Position numbers and translations under genes: made by a program
From: a virus
Direction: 5' to 3' (one strand)
IMG/VR virus record: IMGVR_UViG_3300036668_000172
Span: 19,750-83,749 of that record
Length of the DNA: 64,000 nucleotides
In this document: positions 3,481 through 32,489 of the stretch, one piece after another
How the letters are laid out: every line of letters starts with the position of its first letter
Numbering within the stretch: position 1 is the first letter of the stretch
The notes under the pieces: generated by a model
What the model was told of the DNA's origin: nothing
The model's database searches: none
Seen by the model: the letters and a program-made list of their open reading frames with translations, nothing else

Positions 3481-3513
3481 AGTATTTTTCTCCTAATGTT
3501 AGATGTTTGTGTT

Positions 3514-3535
3514 GGGGGGCCCCGAAGGACCCCCC
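3514..3535 (-). terminator. GC-rich hairpin with cUUCGg tetraloop after the capsid gene
   Basis: GGGGGGTCC-TTCG-GGGCCCCCC; no U-tract; runs directly into a CCAACACAAACA box. Confidence 0.65.
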
Positions 3536-3553
3536 TCCACTAATGTTGCACTA

Positions 3554-4666
3554 TTACGCGGTGTATACCTTGACAATAGCCTGGTCGGTGATAACACCAA
3601 GACCCCAAATTGCGTACCATGCAAGTGCGTGCTCGCGACCGAAGTCTAGAACACCACCGTCACGGAGCTCAACTGGTAGAGAGATTGCGTGACCAAATGC
3701 GTTGTCACCAATCATGATTGACTCGTAAACGTCAGTTGCAGTGGTTCCAGTAGGAGCGGTTGCGCCTGGCTCTGCAGGGTTTCCACCACCACCTGGGACG
3801 GTGTTAGCCTTTACAGGGATGTAGCTCTGGCCTGTAAGGAGACCTGCCTGAGCGCTGTAATCAACTGCGGTACCCTGAGCTAGCTTGTTAACCTGAGTGG
3901 TCTCGATGAAGACTACGTCGTATAGACGACCAATCTCACCAAGCATGAAGTTACCAGGTGCTGCATATTTGGTAACTTCAATGAACTCTGGGTTTGAACG
4001 CAAGTCGCGTGACTGCTTTGGGTGGATGAACTGTACGTAGGTTTCGCCTAGACGTGGGATGTTCTTTCCAGCAAGAGTAAGAGCGGCATCCTTGATGGCA
4101 CCAGTCGTTAGCTTGTGGGCTGCTGAAACTCCAGCAATAGAAGTAGCTGCAGTTCCCTCGTCGTAGTTGGTGAATGCGCCACCAACGATACCTGAGCGGT
4201 CGTAACCGAATACAGCTGAAGTAGCTGCAGACAAGGTGTTACGTGCCTGTAGGTCTAGGTACTGTGCCATGTGGCGACCTAGGAGACGCGAAGCGGAAGC
4301 CATAACGTCATCAAATGATGCGTTAAGTAGTAGCTCCGAAACAGCGGTTGCGTAACCGTGCTCTGCAACGGTGATAGCAATCTGCTCTGCGGTTAGTGAG
4401 TTGGTAGTCATACGGACACCTTCGGTCAGTGGAGTTGGGTCCACTGCGAAGTTCTTGTAACGTAGGAAGTTGACACGGAGACCAGGTGATACACCTAGCT
4501 CGGTCTTCTTAACTGCGAACTGTTCAAAGCGAAGAATTGGCATCGCTTGGAATAGGATTTCCTTTGACCAGATGGTCTGAATGGCCTGTGAAAGCTGGGA
4601 GTTGCTACCTGAGTAAGCTGTAGGTGCGCCTGCGAGCTGACCAGTTCCTGTAATACCTGAAGCCAT
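3554..4666 (-). CDS. Major capsid protein (N4-gp56-like family)
   Basis: PLTEG, EHGY, FIHPKQSRDLR, GEIGRLYDVVFIET, DFGREHALAWY motifs; order portal-scaffold-capsid. Confidence 0.92.
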   Translation of the reverse strand: MASGITGTGQLAGAPTAYSGSNSQLSQAIQTIWSKEILFQAMPILRFEQFAVKKTELGVSPGLRVNFLRYKNFAVDPTPLTEGVRMTTNSLTAEQIAITVAEHGYATAVSELLLNASFDDVMASASRLLGRHMAQYLDLQARNTLSAATSAVFGYDRSGIVGGAFTNYDEGTAATSIAGVSAAHKLTTGAIKDAALTLAGKNIPRLGETYVQFIHPKQSRDLRSNPEFIEVTKYAAPGNFMLGEIGRLYDVVFIETTQVNKLAQGTAVDYSAQAGLLTGQSYIPVKANTVPGGGGNPAEPGATAPTGTTATDVYESIMIGDNAFGHAISLPVELRDGGVLDFGREHALAWYAIWGLGVITDQAIVKVYTA

Positions 4667-4702
4667 AGTGGTTCAAGTCCTTTCGGTCTAGTTAGTTGAT
4701 TG

Positions 4703-5464
4703 TTAGTTGAACAAACCCTGTCCACTGTTGTTGCCTGTGCCAAGTAGCTTGGCTCTGTTCTTTGCATAATCCGCCATTGACATGTTATTAATGTCGTTGG
4801 GCGAGTACGAGCGTTGTTCCGAATCGTTATCCAGGGGTCCTGAGGCAGGCACGGTAACCCGTGCTCCCACCATGTCTTTTCTCGTCTGTACCCCAGCTTG
4901 GGCTACAGAGTCAAAAATCTTTGCAGATTTGTCTTTCAACGATGAGATACTCTGCTCAATCTCATCCTCGTTATTACCCTGAATCATGTCGATAAGCTCA
5001 GGGATAATGCCGTCTCTTTCCTGCTCTAATCTCATAGAGCGGTAGTTAGTGAGGGCTTGAAAGCGACGTTCTTGGTCTAGGAGTGCAAATGCCTTCTCAC
5101 GTTCCTGGCGCTCATTGTCTAACTGAGACTGCCATTCCTGTTCCTTGACCTGCAGAAGCTGGCGAACCTCAAGTTCAGCTTCTTCCTCATCCTTCTTCTT
5201 CTTCAGAGCTTCGGTATCACGCTTTTTGCGGTCATCCTTGCGACGAGACTCTTCAGCCTCACGCTCTTGCTCACGTAGCTTGAGAAGGGTAAGCTCTTCT
5301 TTTAGCTTCTCTACCTGAGGGTAAAGCTTCTCTTTTTCCTGTGCACGAGCTTTTGCAATGTCATCAGCTGTGAACTGTGGAAATGGAGTATCAGGAGTTT
5401 CTGCGGTATTTAGAGCATCTGTTGCGGTTTCAGGCAAAGTCTCAGCCTGCTGTATTTCGTCCAT
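4703..5464 (-). CDS. Capsid scaffolding protein
   Basis: Highly charged coiled-coil, C-terminal MSMADYAKNRAKLL, immediately upstream of the capsid gene. Confidence 0.8.
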   Translation of the reverse strand: MDEIQQAETLPETATDALNTAETPDTPFPQFTADDIAKARAQEKEKLYPQVEKLKEELTLLKLREQEREAEESRRKDDRKKRDTEALKKKKDEEEAELEVRQLLQVKEQEWQSQLDNERQEREKAFALLDQERRFQALTNYRSMRLEQERDGIIPELIDMIQGNNEDEIEQSISSLKDKSAKIFDSVAQAGVQTRKDMVGARVTVPASGPLDNDSEQRSYSPNDINNMSMADYAKNRAKLLGTGNNSGQGLFN

Positions 5465-5535
5465 GGGTATTCTCTTTTCGTTTACTTGGTCGTTGTCCGT
5501 ATGAGTGTCTGGTTAGCCGTGCCTATTACGTAACT

Positions 5536-5571
5536 AGTTTTTAGTATTTAGAGTAACTTTGGTATCTAAAC
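5536..5571 (-). promoter_or_regulatory. Putative bipartite late-type promoter (GTTTAG-N24-AAAACT)
   Basis: Motif copy upstream of the scaffold/capsid genes. Confidence 0.55.
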
Positions 5572-5602
5572 CCAATAAATTACAGCAATTAAATATTAAA
5601 AA

Positions 5603-7309: not shown

Positions 7310-7545
7310 TACTTACTCTTGCTCTGGTGCTGTTTGCTTGCCATGTGTGCCTTCTCCTGAAGAAAATGCTTTATCATTTCCTTCTTCCGCGCTTCTGCTT
7401 CTTGGTCTATAAACTTACCACCAAGTTCCAGATAACGTGTGTGAACCCAATGTGATGCTCCAGGAGAAGGGTACACTCGGTACTTCGCCTTAGCTTGGTT
7501 AACAACCATGGCATACAACTTTTGGTTGGTGGGTTCGTTAGTCAC
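7309..7545 (-). CDS. Hypothetical protein
   Basis: 78 aa, SD AGGAG, translationally coupled to the portal gene. Confidence 0.7.
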   Translation of the reverse strand: MTNEPTNQKLYAMVVNQAKAKYRVYPSPGASHWVHTRYLELGGKFIDQEAEARKKEMIKHFLQEKAHMASKQHQSKSK

Positions 7546-7610
7546 TGAAACTCCTAAAGGCCTAAGCCTACCCCTCTACAGTAGTAAAGGGGTAGGAACT
7601 AGGGGTTAAA

Positions 7611-8003
7611 TTAGTCGTTGACTACAGTCGGGTTAACACGCATGGTGCGACCCATTGACATCTTGGTCTCAATAACCTGCTCGGAGTTCTGGCTGTAAGA
7701 GCCATGAGCAAATTCGCCAAGGAATGTCGGTGCCTCAATCCATGCAGCCGAACCGACGTGTGCACGCTCTGAAAGAGTCTCAGCTGCTGGCTTCTGCCAT
7801 ACAGGTGCATTACGGTTTGGACGACCTGGAGCGCTAGAGGAGCCGCTTACCATGCCCTTCTGAAAGTCGGTTGGAACATCGGTATCTGTGGCGATACCTT
7901 CCTCAAAACGTAGCGGTCCACGGCGTTCTACATTGCCAGTGGCTTTCATCTCATACATCTGAGGTGCTCGTTCAGGAAATTGTGGTGCGGGAGCGATACC
8001 CAT
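7611..8003 (-). CDS. Hypothetical protein
   Basis: Start moved to ATG 8003 after SD AAGGAG. Confidence 0.7.
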   Translation of the reverse strand: MGIAPAPQFPERAPQMYEMKATGNVERRGPLRFEEGIATDTDVPTDFQKGMVSGSSSAPGRPNRNAPVWQKPAAETLSERAHVGSAAWIEAPTFLGEFAHGSYSQNSEQVIETKMSMGRTMRVNPTVVND

Positions 8004-8053
8004 GGAAAACTCCTTAAAGTTAGGATTGGAATAATCTGCAGTTTCCATTTACA

Positions 8054-8089
8054 AGTGTGGCTGTTATCCGCCAATTTGTACTACTAAAC
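8054..8089 (-). promoter_or_regulatory. Putative bipartite late-type promoter (GTTTAG-N24-CACACT)
   Basis: 8061-8080 is 18/20 identical to 62218-62237. Confidence 0.65.
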
Positions 8090-8096
8090 TCTTTTT

Positions 8097-10180: not shown

Positions 10181-10186
10181 GTTGTC

Positions 10187-11020: not shown

Positions 11021-11034
11021 GACCCCAGTATAAA

Positions 11035-11072
11035 GTTAACCCCCGCCCATGTAAGTATGAGCGGGGGTTAAC
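11035..11072 (-). terminator. Intrinsic terminator-like hairpin
   Basis: GTTAACCCCCGCTCAT/ATGGGCGGGGGTTAAC followed by TTTAT. Confidence 0.7.
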
Positions 11073-11084
11073 TATTACTTTTGC

Positions 11085-12204: not shown

Positions 12205-12206
12205 AT

Positions 12207-15371: not shown

Positions 15372-15412
15372 ATAAATAGTGTGCCACAGATTGTTTGTGT
15401 TGGTGTTCTAAG

Positions 15413-15486
15413 CTCCCCTTCCTGGACTTGAACCAAGAACCTACGAGTTAACAGCTCGCCGCTCTGCCGAATTGAGCTAAAGGGGA
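15413..15486 (-). tRNA. tRNA-Asn (GTT), CCA not encoded
   Basis: TCCCCTT/AAGGGGA acceptor, GCTC/GAGC D stem, GCGAG-CTGTTAA-CTCGT anticodon arm, GGTTCAAGTCC T arm. Confidence 0.95.
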
Positions 15487-20408: not shown

Positions 20409-20425
20409 GCTCCCAGTATGACATA

Positions 20426-20904
20426 GCTACAGGGGCGATTTAAGGCTAAAAATGATAAGGGTGACCCCCTGGTAGAACTGTCCGTAGATGAAAAGGGGGT
20501 AACAACTACGGCTCGGCCAGGGGGCCACCTGAGTAGATAGTAGCACATGCCATGGCTACAGGGGCGTTTTAAGACAACCCGTGCATGTGGTTCCAGATAG
20601 CAATCATGTAGACCTCTGCGTCCTCTGGGTCATCATACTTCTTAGCCAGTTCTTCAATGGCGGCGATTAAAGCTGCCTCTGGCAGGTGGGTGACATAGTG
20701 CCAAAGCTGCACCAAGTCATCGTCTATAAACTTCATAACAGTATTATAAGGCTACTGGGGCGTTTTATACATAGAATCGGTAGGCCGCAGCCGAGTCGGC
20801 TCCATTCGGGCCTTTTCGAGTGTCTTTGGGGGGTCAAACCTGCACATTCCGCAATTTAATGCCCAGTAATCAACCGATACCGAAGGATACGGGGGCATTT
20901 TAGG
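20426..20904. repeat. Dispersed about 19-bp direct repeat GCTACNGGGGCGTTTTAAG in the divergent region
   Basis: Copies at 20426, 20555, 20751 and 20886; also 22041 and an inverted copy at 19176-19195. Confidence 0.75.
20569..20736 (-). CDS. 55-aa protein, probably leaderless (not in ORF track)
   Basis: MKFIDDDLVQLWHYVTHLPEAALIAAIEELAKKYDDPEDAEVYMIAIWNHMHGLS; TATAAT 6 nt before ATG. Confidence 0.55.
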   Translation of the reverse strand: MKFIDDDLVQLWHYVTHLPEAALIAAIEELAKKYDDPEDAEVYMIAIWNHMHGLS

Positions 20905-21170
20905 GACAAAATGGGCTACTGCCTCACTTTCAAGGTCATCAAGCGGGTGTGAGACCTGGCATGACCTGCTGGAATTCTGCGGTTACCCTGCTGGCGTGCA
21001 ATAATCCACTTATCGCCACCACGCCGAACAGGTGCGGCGCGCACTCACTCGCTTACTTACGGGCGGTTATCGCTACTAGGTGTATGAATTATGTTCTTGC
21101 GCTTACTAGTGGTAATCGCCACTTAGCCCGCTGTCACTATGGGCTATCACGCTAAGTAAAGGAATAACTA

Positions 21171-21614
21171 ATGAACGCTGTATCTATCCCGACACGCTCA
21201 ACCGATACACCATCAACCATCATTGACGCTACCGACAACGCTCTACGGGGCGCTATTGGTAACGTGTTCGTCGATGCTGTATTTCAGGCTCACGCTCAGG
21301 ACGAGTTGGCTTTTAGGGTCGCTGTAAAGGCGGCAACTAAGGCGCAAATAAAGGCTGATGCCGATGCTATCAAGTATGCCAATGCAGAACTACTCAAGGC
21401 AGACTTGCAAGACAATGGCTCAACTGTTCTGGGTATCGCCGTATCATACGAGGAACTACTCCACCTAGCCACCGTTGGTGTCAAGGCATGGTATGACCTA
21501 CCCGAGGGTAACATCATCGCCCGTCTAGTAAGCGACGTCACCGTAGCCCTAGCTGGGGCGCAGTCTCGTGAGGCAAATGCGCTCAAGAGCGCTATCGCCG
21601 AGCTACAAGGCTAA
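21171..21614 (+). CDS. First gene of the plus-strand early-type block, helical hypothetical protein
   Basis: SD AAAGGAA, 147 aa. Confidence 0.75.
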   Translation: MNAVSIPTRSTDTPSTIIDATDNALRGAIGNVFVDAVFQAHAQDELAFRVAVKAATKAQIKADADAIKYANAELLKADLQDNGSTVLGIAVSYEELLHLATVGVKAWYDLPEGNIIARLVSDVTVALAGAQSREANALKSAIAELQG

Positions 21615-21632
21615 TCAGGCTACTGTATCCCC

Positions 21633-21786
21633 GTAAGCAAGCCCGTCTCCGAGTATGACCAGACTATACAGGCACTTCACGCCTTGTTATCAGGTACTAC
21701 AAGGGGACGGGCTTACTTATTACAGGCTTGTATACCTATACGGTTAGCTAGGTTCTTGGTTCCTAGCTAGCCTTATAGATAGACAA
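21633..21786 (+). ncRNA. Structured intergenic RNA: long closing stem with three inner hairpins, then an 11-bp hairpin
   Basis: 21633-21650 pairs with 21703-21720 (17/18 including G-U); 21742-21752 pairs with 21762-21772. Confidence 0.5.
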
Positions 21787-21824
21787 TCCGTTTATCTAGC
21801 CCAACATACATACAGGAGGACCTA

Positions 21825-22007
21825 ATGGGTCGCAAGAACAGTAAGGCACGAGAGAAGCCACAACCAGAGAGCACAGTAGCTATGGTTGCTAGGCTCAACA
21901 AGCAGAACACCGTCTACAAGGCACACAAGAGAGAAGAAGCGTTCTCTATGTCTCTCTCTATAGGTTCTCGTATACCTGAATCTATCTCTAAGTCCCTTCG
22001 TAAGTAA
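21825..22007 (+). CDS. Small basic protein
   Basis: SD AGGAGG. Confidence 0.7.
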   Translation: MGRKNSKAREKPQPESTVAMVARLNKQNTVYKAHKREEAFSMSLSIGSRIPESISKSLRK

Positions 22008-22393
22008 CTTAGGGGGGCAAAGCCCCCCTATAACCCCCCGACTACGGGGGCGTTCTAAGGTAAGCCCTAATGAAAGGAAAGCTAATGCCTACTAAGCAAG
22101 ATGTGACCTGTTACAACTGTGAGAAAGACTTCACAGCGTGGAAGAAAGACATACAAGACTCGGGAGACTACCCCAAGTGCCCAAGTTGTAGAGAAGAGTT
22201 CAATGTTTGGCTAAGAATGTTATGGGGTGAGCAGAACTAATGCTCATCAAATACTATCCAAGGTTCATGCACCCAACGTTTGGAAGCGTAGGCGACCACC
22301 TATGCAAGAGCTGTGCAGGTGAAAGAACTATAAGCGAACCAAGCCCAATGACCAAGTGTGACAACGGTCACAACTAACGAAGGAGAGTAACTA

Positions 22394-22636
22394 ATGGCAA
22401 CACTTACACCGCTAAGAGAACTAGCACCAAAGATTGAGAGAGAAGGTAGGGGCAAGAGCTGGTATGTATACGCTCAACCCTATGTAGAAGCTATGTATTC
22501 ACTGGATACAGTAGCCGATGATTACTATCAGGACACTGGTTCAAGCATCGTTTCGTATGCACTATCCAACCTTACCTACTGGCGAGGAGAGACAGCTAAA
22601 GAAGTAAAGGCACAACTCAAAGCACACCTAAAGTAA
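22394..22636 (+). CDS. Hypothetical early protein
   Basis: SD AAGGAG; YAQPY..AM...LSNL.YWRGE.AKEVK. Confidence 0.75.
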   Translation: MATLTPLRELAPKIEREGRGKSWYVYAQPYVEAMYSLDTVADDYYQDTGSSIVSYALSNLTYWRGETAKEVKAQLKAHLK

Positions 22637-22648
22637 GAGAGACACAAC

Positions 22649-22819
22649 ATGCAACAGTATGAGTTCACAGTTACACAGTCTGAATACGGACTGGTAACCA
22701 TAACTGCACCAACTATAGAAGGTGCTCGTAGACAATTACGAGAGCTATACGAGACAGGTGCTGTTGATTGGCACGATGCAGAAGTTACATTCGAACAATA
22801 CGAAAGAGAGACACGATGA
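22649..22819 (+). CDS. Small acidic protein, DpnD/PcfM-like family (not in ORF track)
   Basis: MQQYEFTVTQSEYGLVTITAPTIEGA... Confidence 0.6.
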   Translation: MQQYEFTVTQSEYGLVTITAPTIEGARRQLRELYETGAVDWHDAEVTFEQYERETR

Positions 22820-23073
22820 AGCGACTAAGAGAATACATAGAACTACGCAAGCAGCTAATGGCTAGCCCTTATGTGAGTGATGCAGTTAGTAGAGACAGGA
22901 ACAACTTGCTCAAGTTCTTTACGGATAGCCGAAAGCTTGAGACAGCAAAGGTTGTCAAGACATTAGATGGCATCAGATACTCCAAGCCTTGGCCCAAGGG
23001 CACAAGCAATGATGATGCATTCAACCTAGCAATCATGGAAGCAATCACAATCGTAAGACAGGAGATGAGATAA
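22816..23073 (+). CDS. Hypothetical protein
   Basis: Start moved to the ATGA-overlap ATG. Confidence 0.65.
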   Translation: MKRLREYIELRKQLMASPYVSDAVSRDRNNLLKFFTDSRKLETAKVVKTLDGIRYSKPWPKGTSNDDAFNLAIMEAITIVRQEMR

Positions 23074-23075
23074 CA

Positions 23076-23285
23076 ATGGCAAGCACATACTCAAACTCAA
23101 GACGTATGGAAGTAACAGAAGCAGGAGTGATGCAGGTAAAGGTGTGGAGGTGCAGCTATTGCTACACCGAGTTCATTCAGAACCCACAGCCTGAACACCA
23201 CTGTGATGACTACCCGATAGATGAACCAGAGTATACCAACCTAGTTGTAAAGCAAGCAGAGTCATACTACCTAAGGAGAAGATGA
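23076..23285 (+). CDS. Small Zn-binding protein
   Basis: CSYC...HHC; SD AGGAG. Confidence 0.65.
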   Translation: MASTYSNSRRMEVTEAGVMQVKVWRCSYCYTEFIQNPQPEHHCDDYPIDEPEYTNLVVKQAESYYLRRR

Positions 23286-23578
23286 TGACAGTTCCAAAGA
23301 GTGTGTTCATACACACACGCCGTTGGCATGATAAGACATGTGGCACTAACTACTTCGCAAGCCGAGTTGAGGTAGGCACAGGTAACTATTACTATGTGCC
23401 ATTTCAGTATGGCTATGAGGAGGCAGACATAGATGCAGTTGTAAAAGTATTACAAAGTGCAGGCTATGAAGTAGAGCGTAAGCAGTTCAATACAACAGGT
23501 GCACCCTTTGACCACTACCGAGTTGCCTACTGGTCAACCAAAAAAGAAACCAAGAGATTAGGAGACGAGAACGCATGA
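23282..23578 (+). CDS. Hypothetical protein
   Basis: WHDK..GTNYF...PFQYGY. Confidence 0.7.
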   Translation: MMTVPKSVFIHTRRWHDKTCGTNYFASRVEVGTGNYYYVPFQYGYEEADIDAVVKVLQSAGYEVERKQFNTTGAPFDHYRVAYWSTKKETKRLGDENA

Positions 23579-23751
23579 GATACAACGTCACGTTTATAAC
23601 AGACAAAGTAGTGCTTACTACCTCAGTAGAAGCTACCGATGAAGACCAAGCACACGACCAAGCACTAGCCACAGTGTCCTACGAACTAGGGCTGAACCTT
23701 ATACCCATCAGATACCAAGTGGAATACGAAGAGACGGAGGAATACGCATGA
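23575..23751 (+). CDS. Small acidic protein, DpnD/PcfM-like family (not in ORF track)
   Basis: MRYNVTF...SVEATDEDQA. Confidence 0.6.
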   Translation: MRYNVTFITDKVVLTTSVEATDEDQAHDQALATVSYELGLNLIPIRYQVEYEETEEYA

Positions 23752-24270
23752 GCTACGAACCAGGAGTAATTACACGAATAAGCAACACCTACACACTGCT
23801 ACAAAGCTACGGTGTGAACGTTTGGTATGGGGAAGCAGGAGATGACACTGACCTAGCCAAGATGACACTAGACAACACGCCCATGGAAGAACTACTTGCT
23901 TACTGCAAGGAGTATGGCTACCTAGAAGAGGAGGAAGTATGAGCGAGACAGCTTACTTTATGAACAAGACACAGGCAGAGATGCTAGCCAACTTGATACA
24001 AGAGACGATGTCGAACAGCTACGAGGACTACCAGAACTATGCAGAGTTACAGCCTGTATACCACGTACTTACAAGAGGGTGGACATTCAAGACACCAGAC
24101 CACGAAGAGAGAATGAGGGAGGGCAAATGATTAAGTATGACAGCGAAGTCTGCTACCAGTGTGAAGCCAATGAAGTATCTGTGCCTGTAGGTACAGTGCA
24201 CCCATTGTGTGGAGAGTGTGAGAACGAGTTCGATAGCTGGTTCTCTCAGCAACTTATACAACTGGGCTGA
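23748..24270 (+). CDS. Three small coupled genes (23748-23942, 23939-24130, 24127-24270)
   Basis: ATGA overlaps; the last has CxxC...CxxC. Confidence 0.6.
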
Positions 24271-24294
24271 CAGCAAGCCCCAACACAAACAAAC

Positions 24295-24353
24295 GCCCGA
24301 ATAGCATACGTATAGGTGCAAGTCCTATACGGGCACGAGTAGTAACCGCTACT
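24295..24353 (+). ncRNA. tRNA-like minihelix leader, copy 1
   Basis: GCCCG/CGGGC plus TATAGG-TGCAAGT-CCTATA, ACG, hairpin AGTAG-TAACCG-CTACT, then SD GAAAGGAA. Confidence 0.7.
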
Positions 24354-24374
24354 TATACATGAAAGGAATAACGC

Positions 24375-24545
24375 ATGAAAGATTACACCGTTAGTATCTA
24401 CGAAAAAGTTGCTCACATTGTAGATGTACAAGCTGACTCAGAAGATGAAGCATACGACAAAGCCTATGAAGTTATCTCTCTAGGTAAGCCCTATGACATC
24501 GAAGCTGTGGAGTTCACTGGTGAGTGGAAAGCGGAAGAGGCATAA
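24375..24545 (+). CDS. Small acidic protein, DpnD/PcfM-like family (not in ORF track)
   Basis: MKDYTVSIYEKVAHIVDVQADSEDEAYDKA. Confidence 0.7.
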   Translation: MKDYTVSIYEKVAHIVDVQADSEDEAYDKAYEVISLGKPYDIEAVEFTGEWKAEEA

Positions 24546-24548
24546 CGC

Positions 24549-26168
24549 ATGAACGAATGGACAGTATGGGTAGGTGGTGGAGAAGTCAATGACCACCTAC
24601 TTACCTTTGAAGAAGCCTCAGAAGTACTAGAAGAGTACAAGCAAAGAGGTTACGAAGATGCAACTATAGAGAGGATAAAAGAATGAAAAAGTATGTAACA
24701 GACGTAACAATCAGCGTGACAGTAGACGCTAAGGATACAGAGAATGCGTGGAGGCAAATAAACCAGCTTGCAATCGCTCTAAGAGACCTCGCTGAAGCAA
24801 TGGATTACAACTCAGAGCTTCAGGACATAGAGGAGCCAGAAGAGATAGAGGAGGAAAACTAATGCCAGAAGAGAAATGGGTTACCGTAGCTTATCACGAT
24901 GAGCCAGAAGACGAGCTAATGGTATTCGTATCCATTGACAAAAAATGGATAGAAGGAGAAGACGATGACAACATCTTTTTCTACTTTGATACGCAAGAAG
25001 AATACGAGAACGCAAAACAAATAGACAACGGACTAGAGTTCCGCATACTAAAGGAGGAGAACTAATGAGCAAGGTTATTAGAGCAAGCATTGTTTTTGAA
25101 TACTTGGTGGATGGGGATGAAGTCCTAAGTGAACTTACACCCGAAGAACAAATTGAGTATGTCAAAGAAAATGTCGTAGAAGACATAATGTCTATGGGTT
25201 TTGGGAATTCTGATTCCTTACTAGCCGCAATTGAAATCAAAGTGTTAGAGGAGGACTAAGATGCCAAATTATTTAGCGCATTATTCAGTAGGTGAATACG
25301 GAAAAGTATGGTTCAAAGCGGATTCGTTTGAACACGCGGAGAAGTTACTTGCAGAGGTGTTGGAAGGTGAAATGCTATTCGATGACTTGCCTAACATGGC
25401 AACCAAGCCGAAAGGCGATGAGCTAGAGATTGAAGGCTTGGAGGAGTTGCCCTAATGGATTGCCCAAGGCACGAAGGAAGCTACGATTGCACACCATTTT
25501 GTAACCTATGCGAGGGCAACCAAGAATACGAAACTAAGGAGATAACTAAATGACCAAATGGATAGAGAACGAGCACGCTGAAGCAGAAGCAAACTTAGAG
25601 TATCAACGACAAGCAATTGCTAGGGGTGGTGGAAGCGTTAGCGAACTAGATTATGCAATTGGATACCTAGACGCAATAACTAACGCTTGGAACGAAGAGT
25701 CTGGAATGCCCCAACACAAACAAACCATAGAACACCCAACTAAGGAGGAAAACTAATGAGCAAGCAAGTTCACTTTGTAATAGCAGTAGACGTAGACACT
25801 AAAGAAATTTACATAGACGACGATACCTATTCGGCAAGGTTTGATGAGGAACAAGGCTACTTTGACACCGATACAGAAAGTTGGAAAGCAGACGACGACC
25901 AATCTTTCTATAATCAAGCACTAGAGATACTAAACACTAAGGGAAAGGTATGCGGACAATGTTAGATAACAGCACTAAAGGCTTAGAGCCAGCCACACTA
26001 ACAGGCTCAGAGTTGGAAGATGAAGACACAATCGTATGGCAGTCAACACTTACTCAAGAGATGGTAGAGCACATGTCTGAAAAAGACTTGAGCAACCTAA
26101 TCGAAGAGCTAGACAGTGCAGTAGAAGACATCTGCACACAGTATGACGAAGACATGAGTGGGCTTTAA
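24549..26168 (+). CDS. Run of small acidic genes (24549-24686, 24683-24862, 24862-25065, 25065-25259, 25261-25455, 25550-25756, 25756-25965, about 25959-26168)
   Basis: Tight TAATG/ATGA coupling and strong SD motifs. Confidence 0.65.
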
Positions 26169-26323
26169 GAGCTGTGGAAATCAGCAGGCACTATGCACAC
26201 GAGATTGTAGTAGCACAGTACTCAGACCTCAACGGTGTAGCCGTGAATTTCTCAATAGAGTGTCTAGACTGCGACGAAGTAATAGCCGACCAAGACGAAC
26301 CAACTAACTAAGGAGGAAAGACC

Positions 26324-26554
26324 ATGAGCAGCTTATGGAAGAGTAAAAAGAAAGACCTATCAGGTAAGTTCACTATCACCTACAGCATCACGTACAACAT
26401 GAGCAAGAAGTCACTACGTAAGGACTTCCTTGAGTGGTGTGACGATTACAAGCCAACCGTTAAAGCATTGAACGATTGGTTGTCAGACAGATTCATTGAC
26501 CCTATAGCAGTAGACCCTAAGGCAACACTAACGATAACTAAGGAGAGTAACTAA
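26324..26554 (+). CDS. Hypothetical protein
   Basis: SD AAGGAGG. Confidence 0.65.
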   Translation: MSSLWKSKKKDLSGKFTITYSITYNMSKKSLRKDFLEWCDDYKPTVKALNDWLSDRFIDPIAVDPKATLTITKESN

Positions 26555-27078
26555 TGGGATTAGACATGTACCTAGAAGCACGTAAGTATATAAACCGCAT
26601 AGATTGGAAGACCGTACCACAGGGCAAGTTAGCTGACGGAGCTACCCTTGACGACTACGTATCACAAGAGTTCAAAGAAGTACAAGAGATGTTTCCTACA
26701 AAGCTTACTAAGCACGCTGAAGGCGGAAGCACAGTAAGTGTCAACATAGGTTACTGGCGCAAGGCTAACCAAATACACAACTGGTTCGTAACGAATGTTC
26801 AAGATGGGAAAGACAACTGTGAGCCACATCAAGTAAGTGTCACTGAGCTAAGCCAGCTGGTGTCTAGTATAGACACCGTACTAGCTGGAGACATAGAGAC
26901 TGCTAAACGAGAGCTGCCCGTATTAGCAGGGTCCTTCTTTGGTAACTACGATGAAGAAGAAGGCTACAACCTGTACTACTACGAAGAGCTGACCACTACC
27001 AAGGAGATGTTGGAAGACATCATCGCCGCAAGAGTTGAGGGCGACGGTTACGACATGTACTACCAGTCAAGCTGGTAA
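26554..27078 (+). CDS. Conserved phage protein (MGLDMYL...YWRKANQIHNWF...YQSSW family)
   Basis: Recognisable widespread phage hypothetical motif set. Confidence 0.8.
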   Translation: MGLDMYLEARKYINRIDWKTVPQGKLADGATLDDYVSQEFKEVQEMFPTKLTKHAEGGSTVSVNIGYWRKANQIHNWFVTNVQDGKDNCEPHQVSVTELSQLVSSIDTVLAGDIETAKRELPVLAGSFFGNYDEEEGYNLYYYEELTTTKEMLEDIIAARVEGDGYDMYYQSSW

Positions 27079-27105
27079 TAACCAAACACAACGAAAGGAA
27101 TACTA

Positions 27106-27444
27106 ATGAACGCTATAACAATCCCTTACAAGATAGAAGACAAAGAGTTCTGGTCAAGCATCCTAGGTAGTACAGAGTTCACCGAAGAGTGGTGGCTCAA
27201 GATTCACTATGAGGACGACACTAGTTGGGAGTATCCAGGAGCTATACAAGTGACTGCACTAGATGGAGACAACAAGCCAGTTACTAAGAGACTTACATTA
27301 GATGACCTGCTGGTTGCATACATCTTTGCAGTGACACGTGAGTATGGTCACTGTGGTGCACTAGTAGACATACAAGACATGGACTCATGCGCCAGTGACA
27401 TAGTGCTGCAGATAGCAATGTTCGGAGATGTTATCTATGGATAG
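27106..27444 (+). CDS. Hypothetical protein
   Basis: C-terminal D...D.VLQ.A.FG.V.YG motif. Confidence 0.75.
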   Translation: MNAITIPYKIEDKEFWSSILGSTEFTEEWWLKIHYEDDTSWEYPGAIQVTALDGDNKPVTKRLTLDDLLVAYIFAVTREYGHCGALVDIQDMDSCASDIVLQIAMFGDVIYG

Positions 27445-27613
27445 TAAGCGTGTGAAGTTCTTACTACGTGGAGCAAAGCAAACACTGCCCCAACACAAAC
27501 AAACCATAGAACACCTATGGATACGTAAGAAAACAATTTTGCGTATCATGACCGAGGCCTATAACATGGGCAGAGAGGATGAACATGGAATTCAAACAGA
27601 CCCTAATGTGTGA
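27437..27613 (+). CDS. Hypothetical protein containing the 30-nt repeat
   Basis: Shares PQHKQTIEH with ORF 25550-25756. Confidence 0.5.
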   Translation: MDSKRVKFLLRGAKQTLPQHKQTIEHLWIRKKTILRIMTEAYNMGREDEHGIQTDPNV

Positions 27614-27741
27614 AGAGTGCTTTGCACACTACACCGATACAGACCCCAAGCACGTATGCGGAGAGAATGGTGAATACGTAGTGTTCCCATTTGAATTGTA
27701 CGGCCCCGAAGCGCTTTGGGATAGCGAGTACTAGCACCATA

Positions 27742-27800
27742 GCCAGACCAGCAGACACCTAGGTGCAAGTCCTAGGCTGGCACGACTAGCAACCGCTAGT
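27742..27800 (+). ncRNA. tRNA-like minihelix leader, copy 2
   Basis: GCCAG/CTGGC plus CCTAGG-TGCAAGT-CCTAGG, ACG, hairpin ACTAG-CAACCG-CTAGT, then SD GAAAGGAA. Confidence 0.7.
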
Positions 27801-27819
27801 TATTTATGAAAGGAAATTC

Positions 27820-29181
27820 ATGTACGCAACACTTATACTCAGCCAGTCTCCTTACGGTGTAAGACAGACTGCTATCATCCCTACGCCATCAGGCGAAGTA
27901 AGAATAATGTACCGCTGTGGCTTTGGTCGTGGCTTAGGTGCAACTTGGATAGAGACTGCACCTGATGTAGATGCAATGCAAGAGCTCACACTCAATGCAC
28001 CTGTGTCTTTGCTTATGACAGGAGCGCACTTACGTGACGTAGACTTCCTAGGTCGTACGCCAAACAACGTGCTACAAGCACTAGGTAAGCGCATCAGTAC
28101 TAGCTTTGTCCCTAGTGTAGCTACCTTGCAAGAGGTGCACGACACAGTTATGTCACTTGCAACTACCAACCCTGTGTCCCTCAGCAAGTTTGCACACAAG
28201 CAGATGACTGTTGTCACAGTGCCACCAGTAGTAGCACCTGTATTACAAGCTGTAATAGAGCCTGTAGTACAAGATGTACCAGAGCCGATTGCAGAGGTAG
28301 ACCAGCTAGTTGTACCGACGCTATCCGCTAATCCTGCAAGCTCCACTGCACGTAGCCTCAACATCCTCAATGTTCCAGAAGTTACCAGCTATCACGAACG
28401 TACCTTCGAGGACATTCCAGAGACCAAGGTGTACGACGTAGCTACCAAGACACAGCAAGCTGTGTTGCTTACAGGTGATGCAGGTACAGGCAAGACATCC
28501 AGTGCACGTAACTGTGCCGCTAGGCGTCAAGTACCGTTTGTAGTTATCGAGTGCACTCAGCAGATTGACAGCTCAATCATTCAAGGTAGGTTCGTACCAG
28601 AGGAAGACGGCAAGTCAGTCAAGTGGGTATACAGCCAACTAGCTACAGCAGTACAGCAGCCTTCTGTAATCCTGTTCAATGAGCTGACACGTATGTCTCC
28701 CAAGTCTGCTTCGTTGTTCTTGCGACTATTGCAAGAGCGTGAGTTGTTCATCGAGCCATTCAATGAAGTAATCAAGCTACATCCTGAGTGCCTCATCATT
28801 GCAGATGCCAACGTAGGTACGTCATACAACGGCACCATGAGACAAGACGGTGCACTCATTGACCGCTTCAACATCAAGCTCAACTTTGTTTACGATGCAG
28901 ACCTTGAAGCTAAGTTCCTTCCATACCCTGCACTGCTTGCGTTTGCTACAGGTATCCGCAAAGCATCAGCGCTAGGTATGGAAGACTTCAGTACTCCAAT
29001 GTCTACTAGGTTGTTACAGAACTTTGCAATGCATGCCAACCACTTCAGTTGGGACTTTGCAGTTGCTAGGTTGCTTGCTAACTTCCCTACCGATACCAAT
29101 GAGCGTGATGCAGTCAAGATGCGTCTTGATGCAGATGCCCCACGTATTGCCCAAGACTTCGGTGTTACTTTAAACCGATAG
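27820..29181 (+). CDS. MoxR/CobS-like AAA+ ATPase
   Basis: Walker A GDAGTGKT, variant Walker B ILFNE, ALIDRF. Confidence 0.85.
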   Translation: MYATLILSQSPYGVRQTAIIPTPSGEVRIMYRCGFGRGLGATWIETAPDVDAMQELTLNAPVSLLMTGAHLRDVDFLGRTPNNVLQALGKRISTSFVPSVATLQEVHDTVMSLATTNPVSLSKFAHKQMTVVTVPPVVAPVLQAVIEPVVQDVPEPIAEVDQLVVPTLSANPASSTARSLNILNVPEVTSYHERTFEDIPETKVYDVATKTQQAVLLTGDAGTGKTSSARNCAARRQVPFVVIECTQQIDSSIIQGRFVPEEDGKSVKWVYSQLATAVQQPSVILFNELTRMSPKSASLFLRLLQERELFIEPFNEVIKLHPECLIIADANVGTSYNGTMRQDGALIDRFNIKLNFVYDADLEAKFLPYPALLAFATGIRKASALGMEDFSTPMSTRLLQNFAMHANHFSWDFAVARLLANFPTDTNERDAVKMRLDADAPRIAQDFGVTLNR

Positions 29182-29205
29182 CCAACCCAAAGATAGGAGA
29201 GCACA

Positions 29206-31032
29206 ATGAATTACACAGTAAGTAACTCTGTTATAAGCAAAGACACTATTCAAGATATGCACGCTGGCAAGCTTCAGTCTTCCATGGCTAAGTTCGCTCG
29301 CTCCATGGCCTTGCGGTCAGTGCAAGTCAATGTCAAAAGGTATCAGCATGACTACATGCCTGACGCACCTGCATGGTCTGATGACCACACCATACACATC
29401 GCTCATGACAAAGACACAGGCAACATAGGGTCAGCTGACAATATCATCAGGCTCAAGGGGTTGCTGATACATGAGCTATCTCACGTGCTGTTTACCCCTC
29501 GCTCCAAGACTGCCTTAGTCAAGTGGGTGCGTGACAATCGCTTGTGGAATGCCTTCAACATCCTTGAGGACAACCGCATTGAGAACCTTATGGTTGCCAA
29601 CATGTCTGGTGTCAAGCCTTGGTTAGTACACACCGTTACAACTGAGCTAATCAAGACTGCACCTATTCAAGCTAACTCACTGCTACCGCTAGTGTGGGGA
29701 CGCAAGTACCTGCCATTAGAGATACGCATGGCCGCACTTGATACGTGGAGAGTTCTCAATGCAGATGACATTACTGCACTGTTAGACGAGTACATTACAC
29801 TCAACCTCCAACACAAACCAGACATATTACGAGCTACAGTAATCATAGGCAAGTTCTCTTCGGCACTACAGGAAGAGCAGGACCTTGATGGCAAGCCTCC
29901 TGTTGGGTCTATACACCATGGCACCACCTCGGAGACCGCTCCAGATAGCAAGGCAGACTCTCAACCCATGAGTAAAGCTCAGCAAGACAAGCTGCTTGAT
30001 AAAGTAGAAGATGATAGTACACAGCCATCAAGTGATGATAGTGATGAGAGTAGTGCGAGTAGTGAGAGTGGTGCGAGTACTAGCTCTGGCAAGACTTTGG
30101 CTGAGCAACTACAAGATGCAGCAGACGCAGCAATGGACACGCTATTAGAGGATGTAAAAAGCACTGTACAGTCTGTAAAAGAGTCTTCTGAGCCTGTAAA
30201 TGTCATGGGTGACGATTCGGTATCTTCAAGAGAGAGCGACCAGCTCATCAATCGAGTACCTGAGTACTCCAAGAAGCTTGAGACGCCTAGTGCTGATGCC
30301 CTGATAGCTTCAAGGCAGTTTGCTAAAGAGCTAACGGAGTTGCGTACTCAGCACGACCCAGGATGGATGCGGCGCTCAGACCAAGGTCGCCTAAACGTCA
30401 AGGACTTCATGTTGGGCACTGACTTAGAGGAAGCCTTTGACCAGTGGTCAGAAGGTAACCAAGATGTTACAGACATCGAATGCGTAGTGCTTCTCGACAA
30501 CTCAGGTTCAATGGAAGACATGATTACCCCTGCTTACGAAGCTATGTGGGCAGTCAAGCGCGGGCTGGATAGTGTGCAAGCTAGCACTACAGTAATTCAG
30601 TACGGTAGTCGTGGTGAGATTCTATACGGGCCCAACCAACGTGCTTCCAACCAAGTACTTACTGCACGTCATGCAGGTAGTAGTGGTGGCACTGACCCTT
30701 TCTGGAGCTTAAAGAAAGCCCATGAAATCCTTGCTGACTCTACTCGTGCTATCAAGATGATGATAGTCATTACAGATGGCTCGTGGGGAAGTGCCCTAGC
30801 ATGCGAAGAAGCTATCCTAGCCATGCGTGGCAACGGTGTGCTAACTGGTCTGGTGTTCTTAGCTGACCCCAATCCTAGTACCCAATGGCAGTACAGCAAG
30901 ACAGCAGAAAATGAAATCATTGTTGATGCTCACAAGTGTGAAGTAGCAGTCATGTTGACTGCACCAAGACAGTTAGTTGACTTTGCCAAGGACATCACTA
31001 AACTAAGTCAGAAGAGAGTAGAGAGGGTATAA
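29206..31032 (+). CDS. Metallopeptidase-like plus vWA domain protein (CobT-like)
   Basis: HELSH, NILEDNRIE, acidic Ser-rich linker, MIDAS DNSGS...GGT...ITDG. Confidence 0.85.
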   Translation: MNYTVSNSVISKDTIQDMHAGKLQSSMAKFARSMALRSVQVNVKRYQHDYMPDAPAWSDDHTIHIAHDKDTGNIGSADNIIRLKGLLIHELSHVLFTPRSKTALVKWVRDNRLWNAFNILEDNRIENLMVANMSGVKPWLVHTVTTELIKTAPIQANSLLPLVWGRKYLPLEIRMAALDTWRVLNADDITALLDEYITLNLQHKPDILRATVIIGKFSSALQEEQDLDGKPPVGSIHHGTTSETAPDSKADSQPMSKAQQDKLLDKVEDDSTQPSSDDSDESSASSESGASTSSGKTLAEQLQDAADAAMDTLLEDVKSTVQSVKESSEPVNVMGDDSVSSRESDQLINRVPEYSKKLETPSADALIASRQFAKELTELRTQHDPGWMRRSDQGRLNVKDFMLGTDLEEAFDQWSEGNQDVTDIECVVLLDNSGSMEDMITPAYEAMWAVKRGLDSVQASTTVIQYGSRGEILYGPNQRASNQVLTARHAGSSGGTDPFWSLKKAHEILADSTRAIKMMIVITDGSWGSALACEEAILAMRGNGVLTGLVFLADPNPSTQWQYSKTAENEIIVDAHKCEVAVMLTAPRQLVDFAKDITKLSQKRVERV

Positions 31033-31170
31033 CATGAATGCAGAATACTACTGCATGTTTTGTGAGGAGTTTGTTTACTCGCAAGACGTTGCAATAAAGT
31101 GTTACAAATGCAAAGAGTACAAGGGACTAATCCCTGTGTCAGAAGCACCAATGAATGAGGAGGATAACTA

Positions 31171-31446
31171 ATGGGATACAAAGTAGGAGCAGAAATAGCA
31201 GATTCAAATCTAGACATAGAAGCCAAGATGGCGTGGCACCTTACAGGTAACCACGTACCACCAATAGACGAAGCGTTCGTTCCTGTAGCAGTGCAGGCAA
31301 TAGAGCTTGCCAACACAAACAACTGGGATGAACTACTAGAGCTACCCAACGGACTAGAGCGCTCAGTAGCGTTCATAATAAATGGCATGCACCTAGAACC
31401 ATTCGTTACTATCATTCCAACACCAAAAGATGAAGGAGACAACTAA
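31171..31446 (+). CDS. Hypothetical protein
   Basis: WHLTGNHVPP motif; SD AGGAGG. Confidence 0.7.
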   Translation: MGYKVGAEIADSNLDIEAKMAWHLTGNHVPPIDEAFVPVAVQAIELANTNNWDELLELPNGLERSVAFIINGMHLEPFVTIIPTPKDEGDN

Positions 31447-31634
31447 TGAATAGATACCAAGTAGCAGTACTAGTTAAGTATCACGTGTCAGCAGACAACC
31501 TCGATGATGCTTGGGAGCTCATTGAAGTTGGGGCCGAGTTCCCTGTGACACCATTTGATGATGAGACAAACGTCAGTAGCGTGCAGATTGTAAGTGTTAT
31601 AGACCTATCAGACGTAGAAGAAGAAGAGGAGTGA
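31446..31634 (+). CDS. Small acidic protein, DpnD/PcfM-like family
   Basis: YQVAV...VSADNLDDA. Confidence 0.6.
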   Translation: MNRYQVAVLVKYHVSADNLDDAWELIEVGAEFPVTPFDDETNVSSVQIVSVIDLSDVEEEEE

Positions 31635-31730
31635 GATGATGAGAGAGACACTCGGAAGCGGATGGCCGTATATAATGACGATAATAGCCCTAGTAGTTTG
31701 GTGGGTTGGAAGTAATCTATGGAGGAAGAA

Positions 31731-31940
31731 ATGAGTGAGTACTACGATGGAGGCTCCATGAGAGGCTCAGGCATAGATTCTATAGAAGTAGAATACGATG
31801 TATTTCAGTGCAATGATTGCGAGTTTGACAATCCAGAAGGGGTAGTCAACACAGACGATTGGGGTAACTACGAAGTTACATGCAGTGAGTGCGGGTGGTT
31901 GTACACCGAGGGTAAGCGTTGGGCGTACTATGGCTCATAA
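31731..31940 (+). CDS. Small Zn-ribbon protein
   Basis: CNDC...CSEC. Confidence 0.6.
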   Translation: MSEYYDGGSMRGSGIDSIEVEYDVFQCNDCEFDNPEGVVNTDDWGNYEVTCSECGWLYTEGKRWAYYGS

Positions 31941-32148
31941 AGAGTTATCACATCTGATAAAACAAGCAGAGTCACAAGGCTGGGTAGTTTCCCACTTAAA
32001 AGGTGGCCACTTAAAGTGGGTGTCACCTATAAGCGGTAGGGCAGTGTTTAGTGGGTTCAGCCCATCAGACAAAAGAGCTGTCAAAAATATAGTAAGGGAG
32101 TTACGCATAAGCGGCTTCCTCATAATCAAACAGAAAGGGACAAAATGA
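31930..32148 (+). CDS. HicA-like protein
   Basis: GWVV...KGGHLKW...P...SPSD, HicA/dsRBD-like pattern. Confidence 0.7.
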   Translation: MAHKELSHLIKQAESQGWVVSHLKGGHLKWVSPISGRAVFSGFSPSDKRAVKNIVRELRISGFLIIKQKGTK

Positions 32149-32465
32149 CAACAAAGAAATTCCGTACAGGTAAAGCTGCAACAAAGAGCTTTTTACTACC
32201 AAGCTTTGACTTGGCACGAGCGCTGTGTGCTAAGGCAGACCCTGAGGTGTTCTTTCCTGATACAGGTGCGATGAGTGACGTCAAAGGTGCCAAAAGAATC
32301 TGTAACGCATGTGAGGTACAGGTTGACTGTCTTGAGTGGGCACTGAAGAACGAAGAGGAATACGGCATCTGGGGAGGGCTTACAGCTGCCGAGAGACGTC
32401 GCCTAAGTCGTGCACGTAAAAGGTATCAAGTTGTGCAAGTACCTGCCCCTAAAGTAAGAAAGTAA
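32145..32465 (+). CDS. whiB: WhiB family transcription factor
   Basis: C...DPEVFFP...AKRIC..C.V...CLEWAL...GIWGGLT..ER with basic tail. Confidence 0.95.
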   Translation: MTTKKFRTGKAATKSFLLPSFDLARALCAKADPEVFFPDTGAMSDVKGAKRICNACEVQVDCLEWALKNEEEYGIWGGLTAAERRRLSRARKRYQVVQVPAPKVRK

Positions 32466-32489
32466 ACCAGCTTCAACACAAACATTTGC

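Follow-up and report, generated by a model that had tools for sequence, protein, structure and literature searches.

A transcription-oriented 12-base word of uncultured actinophages as a possible cognate site of a small phage-encoded HNH protein

Why should a phage hold the same asymmetric word of twelve bases at scattered places of its genome, and what reads it? The question is raised by a stretch of 64,000 nucleotides (hereafter the window), which covers positions 19750-83749 of the 83,749-base virus record IMGVR_UViG_3300036668_000172 and contains six exact copies of the 12-mer CCAACACAAACA, where 0.01 are expected. The whole record is called G000 and its relatives are numbered from G001; positions refer to the window unless a genome is named. 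Dispersed, oriented, exact words are known in a few phage groups, and this one belongs to a very large clade of uncultured actinophages. The explanation that we favour, tentatively and with somewhat less than even confidence, is that the word is the cognate nick or binding site of a phage-encoded, I-HmuI-like HNH protein of 99 residues.

The six copies are all present at the places and on the strands reported in a preliminary description of the window, which was made from its letters. The enrichment that it had noted holds for exact copies and at up to one mismatch (8 matches against 0.38 expected), and none of 100 dinucleotide-preserving shuffles of the window reached six copies of the word. 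At up to two mismatches 13 matches were found against 6.7 expected, so that degenerate copies are near chance. The 11/12 copy that the description placed at 32473-32484 exists as TCAACACAAACA, a one-mismatch word also found in G002, G003 and G012; a second 11/12 copy, CCAACACAAACC, had escaped it, and the status of the latter is uncertain, since it may be a chance match. The variant it had seen near 21801 is also there, as CCAACATACATA, with three mismatches. It may be a decayed copy, which the count alone cannot separate from chance. The whole 83.7-kb record holds eight exact copies, five on the plus strand and three on the minus strand. One of those outside the window (G000 8424, minus) is sense, intergenic and 15 nt before a start codon; another (G000 6719, plus) is antisense within a 350-aa open reading frame (ORF) of the minus strand. 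The claim that the word is always oriented with transcription thus stands for six of six copies in the window, both by the ORF map and by an AT-skew proxy, and must be relaxed to seven of eight in the whole record.

Relatives were retrieved through the CobS-like protein, the capsid protein and the 99-aa HNH of G000. At least 599 IMG/VR stretches match the capsid patterns and 597 are confirmed relatives; repeating the capsid search yielded, for the most part, contigs already found and added no large record. Among the five relatives found by the CobS-like protein, its identity to that of G000 is 44-68%. The preliminary description had proposed that conservation be sought in relatives, and the exact word does stand at three to eight sites in each of 16 genomes: G000, G001 to G005 (5, 8, 5, 8 and 3 copies), G011 and G012 (4 and 6), and G016 to G021, G023 and G025 (5, 6, 6, 6, 6, 5, 3 and 5). 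The word read backwards, used as a control, matched zero or one times in the same genomes. The exact word has no copy in G006-G010 or in the partial records G013-G015, despite capsids about 82-86% similar, and the 10-mer CCAACACAAA, with 50 occurrences across eight motif genomes, is absent from five motif-less relatives. In a tree of three replication proteins (which leaves out G016-G021, G023, G025 and G026-G037) the motif genomes form one clade, with a value of 99 in the Shimodaira-Hasegawa-like approximate likelihood ratio test (SH-aLRT); G008 is sister to this clade, and G006, G007, G009 and G010 lie outside.

Cultured phages are more distant. A megablast search with 14 kb of the window against phage records gave no match, and the closest cultured capsids, those of the Streptomyces phages BRock and LuckySocke, are about 60% identical. 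These two phages contain no exact copy of the word, and their counts at up to two mismatches, 8 in BRock and 11 in LuckySocke, compare with 4 and 9 for the reversed control. A literature search for the exact word and its complement gave no phage context among the matches listed, which are unrelated and mostly eukaryotic primer sequences.

The limits of the word are sharp. In 47 exact copies from eight genomes, the set used for the counts of anatomy and placement given below, all 12 positions are fixed and the edges of the logo are abrupt, the flanks from -60 to +60 being otherwise random apart from an A at +13 in 32 copies, a weak G at -6 in 26 and a scarcity of G in the positions just 3' of the word. 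The complementary strand of the motif contains five G. No second box or -10-like element at a fixed distance was found between -60 and +60 in the 47 copies, which bears on one explanation of the word, a promoter element for the host RNA polymerase, aided or not by a phage factor (WhiB, for example). Such an element would fit the orientation with the genes, the many copies upstream of genes and the divergently oriented pairs of G021. However, the distance from word to start codon is 12-46 nt, and the copy at G004 16117 touches the Shine-Dalgarno (SD) sequence, leaving no room for a start site and a leader; other copies lie just before terminators or inside ORFs, and sigma-70-like matches in the early block of small genes are at chance level (14 against 16.8). 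We therefore consider the promoter reading ruled out, as the least credible of the explanations weighed here.

The orientation of the word follows transcription. By the local AT-skew proxy 41 of the 47 copies are sense, and most of the other six lie at convergent junctions, where this proxy is about zero; a crude ORF call places three copies inside ORFs of the opposite strand and about 35 outside ORFs of at least 80 aa. Both strands are used in most of the 16 genomes with the exact word, the five copies of G016 being all reverse and the three of G023 all forward, and in most genomes the copies are concentrated in the early small-gene block. G002-G005 carry a copy that is sense to the operon on the DpdA side. 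An oriented DNA-translocation signal, which the preliminary description had entertained, does not fit this pattern, because the orientation switches twice along the genome and tracks transcription units, not arms.

The copies are also found preferentially at gene boundaries. An SD sequence and a start codon lie within 60 nt downstream of 20 of the 47 copies, as against 9.3% of 20,000 random positions; the stop codon of a long frame lies within 40 nt upstream of 19 (12.7% of random positions), and a boundary of either kind adjoins 28 (20%). Hairpins of -15 kcal/mol or stronger adjoin 18 copies, compared with 11% of 2,500 random positions, and at this threshold they lie upstream of 12, downstream of 7 and on neither side of 29. 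Under a lenient criterion, eight copies stand within hairpin loops (2.5% expected from random positions). Four arrangements recur: the hairpin after the capsid gene, followed by the word, a ribosome-binding site (RBS) and GTG, in G000, G001, G002, G004, G011 and G012; a stop codon followed by the word, an RBS and ATG; the word placed 2-6 nt before a terminator hairpin at the ends of operons; and the word in a hairpin loop, in G004 and G002. Of 80 capsid loci of relatives, 12 have the exact word in the first of these slots. At all convergent junctions the word, read in its own sense, stands 5' of the terminator, and the exact word precedes a terminator in G001, G003, G004 and G021. In the window, the structured neighbours listed by the preliminary description (capsid hairpin, tRNA-Asn, tRNA-like minihelix and convergent terminator) were all confirmed, and the 50 nt upstream of the copy at 3504 fold at -18.2 kcal/mol into a structure that closes at the motif.

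These observations lend themselves to an explanation at the level of RNA: the word would be a single-stranded site of 12 nt in the transcript, placed at cistron boundaries and recognized by a phage RNA-binding protein or endoribonuclease, which would set mRNA processing, stability or the translation of the next gene. The sense orientation, the positions before an SD sequence and start codon or after a stop codon, the adjoining hairpins, the terminators downstream at convergent junctions and the depletion of G just 3' of the word are all as expected of such a signal, and so are the copies that follow a tRNA, precede a tRNA-like minihelix (G000 and G022) or occupy hairpin loops (G004 and G002). 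This is the main rival of our preferred explanation. It carries about two thirds of the weight of the latter and is, on its own, rather unlikely, for reasons that emerge when the possible readers are compared.

The minihelix is an element in its own right. The window has two copies of it, the one next to the word given in Table 1 and another at 27742-27815, with 80% identity and compensatory changes in the stems; its parts are an outer stem, a T-arm-like stem with the loop TGCAAGT, then ACG and a second hairpin. A homologue is present in G022 (about 25660-25730, minus strand), directly after the variant word of that genome. As a general partner of the word the minihelix was discarded, being found only in G000 (two copies) and G022 (one copy) among 15 genomes.

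The position of the word in the hyperplastic early block, where the small genes on either side of it are unrelated, might also be explained if it were a joint of mosaic genomes, that is, a micro-homology for cassette exchange between phages, kept for that role or as its by-product. In favor of this, 11 of the 47 copies lie at most 10 nt from the end of a block of nucleotide homology, against 6.2% of random positions. Yet this excess is confounded by gene boundaries, and 12 bases with random flanks are short for homologous exchange. The sequencing runs listed as containing this sequence comprise 18 of DNA, all available as contigs, and none of RNA. Cassette changes at strain level can be seen in the window at 23570-27480, where four public assemblies contain strains with small-gene cassettes skipped or replaced; the joints, 10 in total, include those from 24360 to 24682, from 25531 to 26536 and from 27082 to 27479. 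Only one of these 10 strain-level joints (27479) adjoins a copy of the word, and most are in repeats at the RBS and start (families D5 and D6). A role as mosaic joint is thus very improbable.

An indication of a dedicated reader comes from genomes in which the word has changed. G022, G024 and G010 lack the canonical word and carry related words in the same slots: eight copies of CCAAGGCAAACA in G022, four of CCGCAACAAACA and three of CCACAACAAACA in G024, seven of CCGCAACAAAAA and two of CCGCCACAAAAA in G010. Among those of G022, one fills the capsid-hairpin slot, three precede an RBS, one precedes a terminator and another stands in front of the minihelix homologous to that of the window; the variant of G024 is also found in the capsid slot, and G010 shows the arrangements hairpin-word-RBS and stop-word-RBS. 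With the family defined as CC[AG]NNNCAAA[AC]A, no word of it occurs more than once in G006-G009. In the tree of the three replication proteins, G022 is nested in the canonical clade, as sister of G011 and grouped with G000 and G001, so that all its copies must have changed CA to GG together. As judged by these comparisons, such a concerted change means that the word is read by a sequence-specific factor that co-evolves with its sites. It also follows from the GG of G022 that being made of C and A only, and hence unstructured, is not the selected property of the word. The general idea put forward in the preliminary description, that of a site for a sequence-specific reader encoded by the phage, analogous to the stoperators of phage L5, is supported by the sharp 12-nt limits, the conservation and the concerted switching of variants.

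A reader could in principle belong to the host, if the word were recognized by a component that differs between host lineages, such as a NusA- or KH-type binder, a ribonuclease, or the machinery of a Chi-like signal. Exact conservation across diverged phages is what one expects of a conserved host reader, and concerted switches could mirror host switches. But sister lineages whose capsids are about 82-86% identical are devoid of any such word, the orientation follows transcription units and not genome arms, unlike that of Chi, and the co-occurrence of the word with a phage gene, described below, would be a coincidence. We regard a host factor as improbable.

One small phage gene tracks the word. 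We compared 415 ORFs of G000 of at least 45 aa, by tblastn, with six large motif genomes, one partial motif genome and five motif-less genomes, and the gene of the 99-aa HNH was the only real gene present in all six large motif genomes and in at most one of the five motif-less ones, the remaining rows with this profile being overlapping-frame shadows of conserved genes. The sole homologue among the five genomes without the canonical word is in G010 (47% identity), which carries a word of its own. An iterated profile search in all frames of 13 genomes found HNH in G000-G004, G011, G012 and G010 only. In IMG/VR the family is represented by at least 527 loci. A repeated word was present in each of ten other large HNH-positive records, canonical in eight and variant in two, whereas HNH and a repeated word are both missing from twelve additional relatives of G007 that are 49-100% complete; as a positive control, the same search recovered four of four known carriers, and it found no HNH in G007. 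Altogether, the family word is repeated in 18 of 18 HNH-positive genomes and in none of the 16 HNH-negative genomes tested, the latter made up of four HNH-negative genomes and the twelve relatives of G007 (G013-G015 are left out of these counts). The only match in a cultured phage, a 236-aa protein of Burkholderia phage BcepSauron with 41% identity, was judged not comparable.

Other phage proteins are poorer candidates. The small ORFs of the early block are mostly unshared among motif-bearing relatives and therefore cannot be the common reader. The MerR-like, SpoVS and KTSC proteins suggested by the preliminary description found no support, as no such domain was present at E<=0.01 in a Pfam scan of 50 ORFs (window 11085-37153). 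Its analogy with the nut sites of lambda failed for want of a consistent partner hairpin: relative to lambda nut and to rrn boxA-boxB, the word lacks a conserved flank and a hairpin at fixed distance, and it also occurs at the ends of operons.

The analogy with stoperators deserves more attention. In the available excerpts of a study of Cluster A mycobacteriophages (PMC6550527), stoperators are asymmetric 13-bp sites that recur many times and mostly point one way with respect to transcription, with a cognate variant in each genome that co-varies with its reader. The likeness, as far as these excerpts go, is in an asymmetric 12-mer in many copies, oriented mostly with transcription and mostly in short intergenic spaces, a cognate word per genome that is similar but not identical to those of relatives, and an actinobacterial host, indicated here by a WhiB gene. 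The word could accordingly be a site where a phage protein binds the duplex without cutting it and modulates the elongating RNA polymerase, in the manner of the L5 repressor at its stoperators. Against this, stoperators are read by the immunity repressor of a temperate phage, and none was found among the proteins scanned here: no helix-turn-helix repressor, integrase or partition gene appeared among 20 proteins compared with PHROGs and 50 with Pfam, and no early gene is common to all motif genomes. The copies are also far fewer (3-8 per approximately 90 kb), none was identified as overlapping a promoter, and the exact word is common to genomes far more diverged than homoimmune phages, while immunity sites are expected to diversify. 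Stoperator-like action at the word is unlikely.

The sequence and predicted structure of HNH are compatible with an enzyme that acts on DNA. The protein has a weak match to Pfam HNH_3 (E 1.9e-4, 21.5 bits), and the pattern DVDHK...NL...KEN is invariant in eight HNH sequences; D65, H66, N78, L79 and N92, kept in all eight, include what we take to be the catalytic His and the metal-binding Asn residues of a beta-beta-alpha-metal core. An AlphaFold (AF2) model built from the HNH alignment has a mean predicted local distance difference test score (pLDDT) of 74.7. When it was aligned exhaustively with 48,161 chains, I-HmuI (1u3e_M) came first, with Z 5.4 and a root-mean-square deviation of 3.7 A over 85 of 99 residues; it was the only chain with Z>=5, followed by I-PpoI at Z 4.7. 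I-HmuI (PDB 1u3e), from Bacillus phage SPO1, is a homing endonuclease of the HNH_3 family; it reads a long asymmetric site, of which it nicks one strand. The resemblance covers the N-terminal sheet and the HNH core, and extends to the Pfam family by the weak match already mentioned. The two proteins differ in size (99 aa for the phage HNH, 174 for the chain, of which only residues 8-107 are aligned) and in setting, since the phage HNH is not intron-encoded and would have numerous sites, all within the genome that encodes it.

Variation in the protein hints at how the word could have been switched. At two positions that are Asn and Ile in 77 of the 78 readable loci (of 80), the HNH of G022 has Lys and Leu, and G022 is the only genome with the CA-to-GG word. 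A replacement of Asn by Lys together with a change of A to G would fit common protein-base contacts, and a specificity switch is therefore possible.

From these results we infer HNH as the reader, its action on DNA, nicking, the strand cut and the purpose of the mark. In the mechanism we propose, HNH would use its N-terminal beta-sheet and beta-beta-alpha-metal core to dock on the 12-bp duplex and would nick, or at least bind, one strand. Since the asymmetric site lies nearly always along transcription, the mark would fall on the same strand relative to RNA polymerase, and placement at gene boundaries would allow a fixed 12-mer to be kept at no cost in coding capacity. The system would then be a variant of the localized nicks known from T5, phiKMV-like and tf-like phages, one in which the sites are intergenic and oriented with transcription. 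A bolder version holds that this stand-alone protein of 99 residues writes strand-specific nicks at a 12-bp gene-boundary address, always on the same strand relative to transcription, and that the address may be re-programmed by one or two residues (Asn to Lys with CA to GG). We consider it doubtful.

Several points weigh against HNH as a nicking or binding reader. The first concern the sites: the word is used on both DNA strands, the share of copies at gene boundaries is unlike that of nick motifs, which are mostly in coding sequence, and the hairpins, the tRNA and the tRNA-like helix next to copies suit an RNA signal as well or better, as do the G-depleted 3' flanks and the copies in hairpin loops. 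The co-occurrence, however regular, comes down to only two contrasts that are independent on the tree (HNH clade against G008, and G010 against G007 and G009), and many of the records are partial. As for the protein, its HNH_3 score is below the gathering score of 24.8, a Z of 5.4 is modest for the match to I-HmuI, and a Foldseek search with the model gave nothing at E<=0.001, the best TM-score being again to I-HmuI. Finally, the link between Asn-to-Lys and the variant word involves a single genome, for whose enzyme no close relative was found (the next best match is 81% identical), and the HNH proteins of G024 and G010 do not show an equally clean substitution.

Several points also weigh against the RNA signal. 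No RNA-binding candidate has the distribution of the motif, and the only gene that does is the DNA-nuclease-like HNH. No complementary RNA was found either: an antisense partner of at least 8 nt outside the sites is lacking in G000, G001, G003, G010, G022 and G024, and none co-varies with the word. The word is not always single-stranded, since in G021 long palindromes have at their base the word paired with an inverted copy of itself, and the GG of the G022 word argues against an unstructured sequence of C and A as the feature under selection. In G021 (G021:1-4000, locus L233), inverted pairs of the 12-mer, at about 1011-1091 and 2276-2366, flank palindromes of 55-65 nt, and a terminator-like hairpin follows each pair. 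Base pairing between the two copies of a pair could occur in RNA or in a cruciform.

If HNH does nick at the word, the closest known systems are the localized nicks of other phages. According to the accessible portions of two reports (PMC3517423; PMC11780129), the nick motifs of T5, of phiKMV-like phages and of tf-like and Rembedalsseter-like phages (TACTRTGMC / WACTRTGAC) are short exact words with about 10 copies per genome, spread unevenly along it and confined to one DNA strand, and the function of phage nicks has been a puzzle for 50 years. The portion of the second report (PMC11780129) adds that these motifs persist throughout families whose members share little nucleotide identity and that they lie mainly on the coding strand, and places 88% of those of the tf-like family inside coding sequence. 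Within the limits of these texts, both kinds of word are short, exact and family-wide beyond sequence similarity, and both prefer the coding strand; ours is concentrated in the early block and theirs is uneven along the genome. They differ in that the known nick motifs keep to one strand and mostly to coding sequence, whereas the word described here flips with transcription and is enriched at boundaries. Moreover, our word is known from sequence alone and its nick is conjectural. On the other hand, it comes with a candidate enzyme, and none is named for tf or Rembedalsseter in the same texts; nor is any nickase named in the entries and abstracts listed by a literature search on phage genome nicks.

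Nicking by HNH, if true, would tie the mark to the layout of transcription units, for example by priming co-directional strand-displacement or recombination-dependent replication; alternatively, it could ease the transcription of relaxed injected DNA. It would also give an enzyme and a logic to the 50-year-old puzzle of localized nicks, and a very small rare-cutting nickase. If HNH does not nick, the word would be a clean case of an RNA-level signal of cistron boundaries in actinophages. Either way the system is tractable, with natural specificity variants switched in concert and one small candidate reader gene that tracks the word.

Start-associated sequences (SAS) of Cluster K mycobacteriophages are another point of comparison. 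In the part of their description available (PMC3203893), these sequences, GGGATAGGAGCCC, lie 3-7 bp from the start codon and contain the SD core, have a single orientation with one exception per genome, occur mostly in the non-structural half, before genes of different families, and are conserved across subclusters. Judged from that text, the word resembles them in its orientation with one exception per genome, in its restriction to the non-structural part and in having no assigned reader. It differs from them in lying 12-46 nt upstream of the start (12-42 nt in the 20 copies with an SD sequence and start codon downstream), without an SD core and with a separate SD sequence, and in being found also within ORFs, ahead of terminators and behind hairpins or a tRNA. 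Among stoperators, SAS and nick motifs, only one kind has both a known reader and a known purpose.

The genome in which the word was found is that of a tailed phage. Matches to PHROG and Pfam include terminase, portal and major capsid protein, a DNA polymerase, two helicases, a primase, a UvsX-like recombinase and a RuvC-like resolvase; G000 also encodes a DpdA-like transglycosylase and, as partners, a CobS-like ATPase and a VWA-domain protein. An RNA polymerase gene was not among these matches. The WhiB gene (Pfam E 1.1e-23) points to an actinobacterium as the host, as far as gene content can indicate. Apart from a block of many small ORFs on the plus strand, at about 20686-32465, the genes are encoded by the minus strand. 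The copies of the word and their neighbours are listed in Table 1.

Table 1. Copies and variants of the word, adjoining features and the HNH gene (window coordinates unless G000 is given)
Feature	Coordinates	Strand	Context
99-aa HNH ORF	G000:2556-2855	minus	outside the window, 16.9 kb before its start
Exact copy, capsid slot	3504..3515	-	directly 3' of GC hairpin; 23 nt ahead of GTG of ORF 3109-3480
GC-rich hairpin, TTCG loop, without U-tract	3516..3538 (approximate)	-	directly upstream of 3504 copy
Major capsid gene	3554-4666	-	followed by hairpin, then 3504 copy
Exact copy	15392..15403	-	starts 9 nt downstream of tRNA-Asn
tRNA-Asn	15412-15486		sole Rfam match in the window
9/12 variant CCAACATACATA, 3 mismatches	21801..21812	+	directly before RBS and ATG at 21825
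Exact copy	24280..24291	+	9 nt past stop of ORF 24079-24270; 3 nt before tRNA-like minihelix
tRNA-like minihelix	24295-24368		adjoins 24280 copy
30-nt repeat (family D8)	25707-25736		identical to 27486-27515; each contains one exact copy
Exact copy	25711..25722	+	last codons of ORF 25550-25756; 33 nt before ATG at 25756
Exact copy	27490..27501	+	in second 30-nt repeat; followed by small hairpin 27504-27520
11/12 copy CCAACACAAACC	29808..29819	+	within 608-aa VWA-domain ORF; possibly chance
Exact copy	31310..31321	+	within ORF 31171-31446, sense
WhiB gene	32145-32465		upstream of 32473 copy
11/12 copy TCAACACAAACA	32473..32484	+	7 nt past WhiB stop; 5 nt before terminator-like hairpin
Convergent terminator-like hairpin	32490-32519		downstream of 32473 copy

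Some neighbouring genes and repeats are of interest by themselves. Just upstream of the HNH gene (G000:2855-3608) lie three small ORFs of 81, 65 and 103 aa, very rich in lysine and patchy among relatives, which may encode nucleic-acid-binding or virion-internal proteins. On the minus strand, a DpdA-like homologue of queuine tRNA-ribosyltransferase (32535-34034, PHROG E 6e-65) suggests, from its similarity, that the phage DNA could carry 7-deazaguanine. The CobS-like ATPase and VWA-domain protein form a pair in the early block (27820-31032, plus). A 506-aa ORF at 402-1922 (minus) has collagen-like Gly-X-Y repeats with a period of 9 nt, which dominate every k-mer count of the genome and have similar counterparts in most relatives; a tail fibre is the presumed product. 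Where the minus-strand and plus-strand blocks diverge, a 27-nt direct repeat with core CTACAGGGGCG occurs at 20418-20444, 20547-20573 and 20743-20769. These repeats may be operators or origin repeats, and G004 and G012 likewise show an excess of the core ACAGGGGCGT / ACGCCCCTG.

Relatives without the canonical word have other features of their own. In the capsid loci of motif-less relatives (L043-L117), most hairpins that follow the capsid gene have the loop ACTCCTTC(T/C)TT, some 30-70 nt past the capsid stop; this loop resembles the 3' end of 16S rRNA, in an anti-Shine-Dalgarno-like manner, and a C/A-rich, G-free leader comes next. Another dispersed word, TAAAGAAGTTA / CTTCTAAAGAA, is present in G006 and G010 (L119-L123, L134-L138) in 9-10 copies each, partly intergenic; in G010 eight of its nine copies are on the plus strand, six of those at 76-83 kb.

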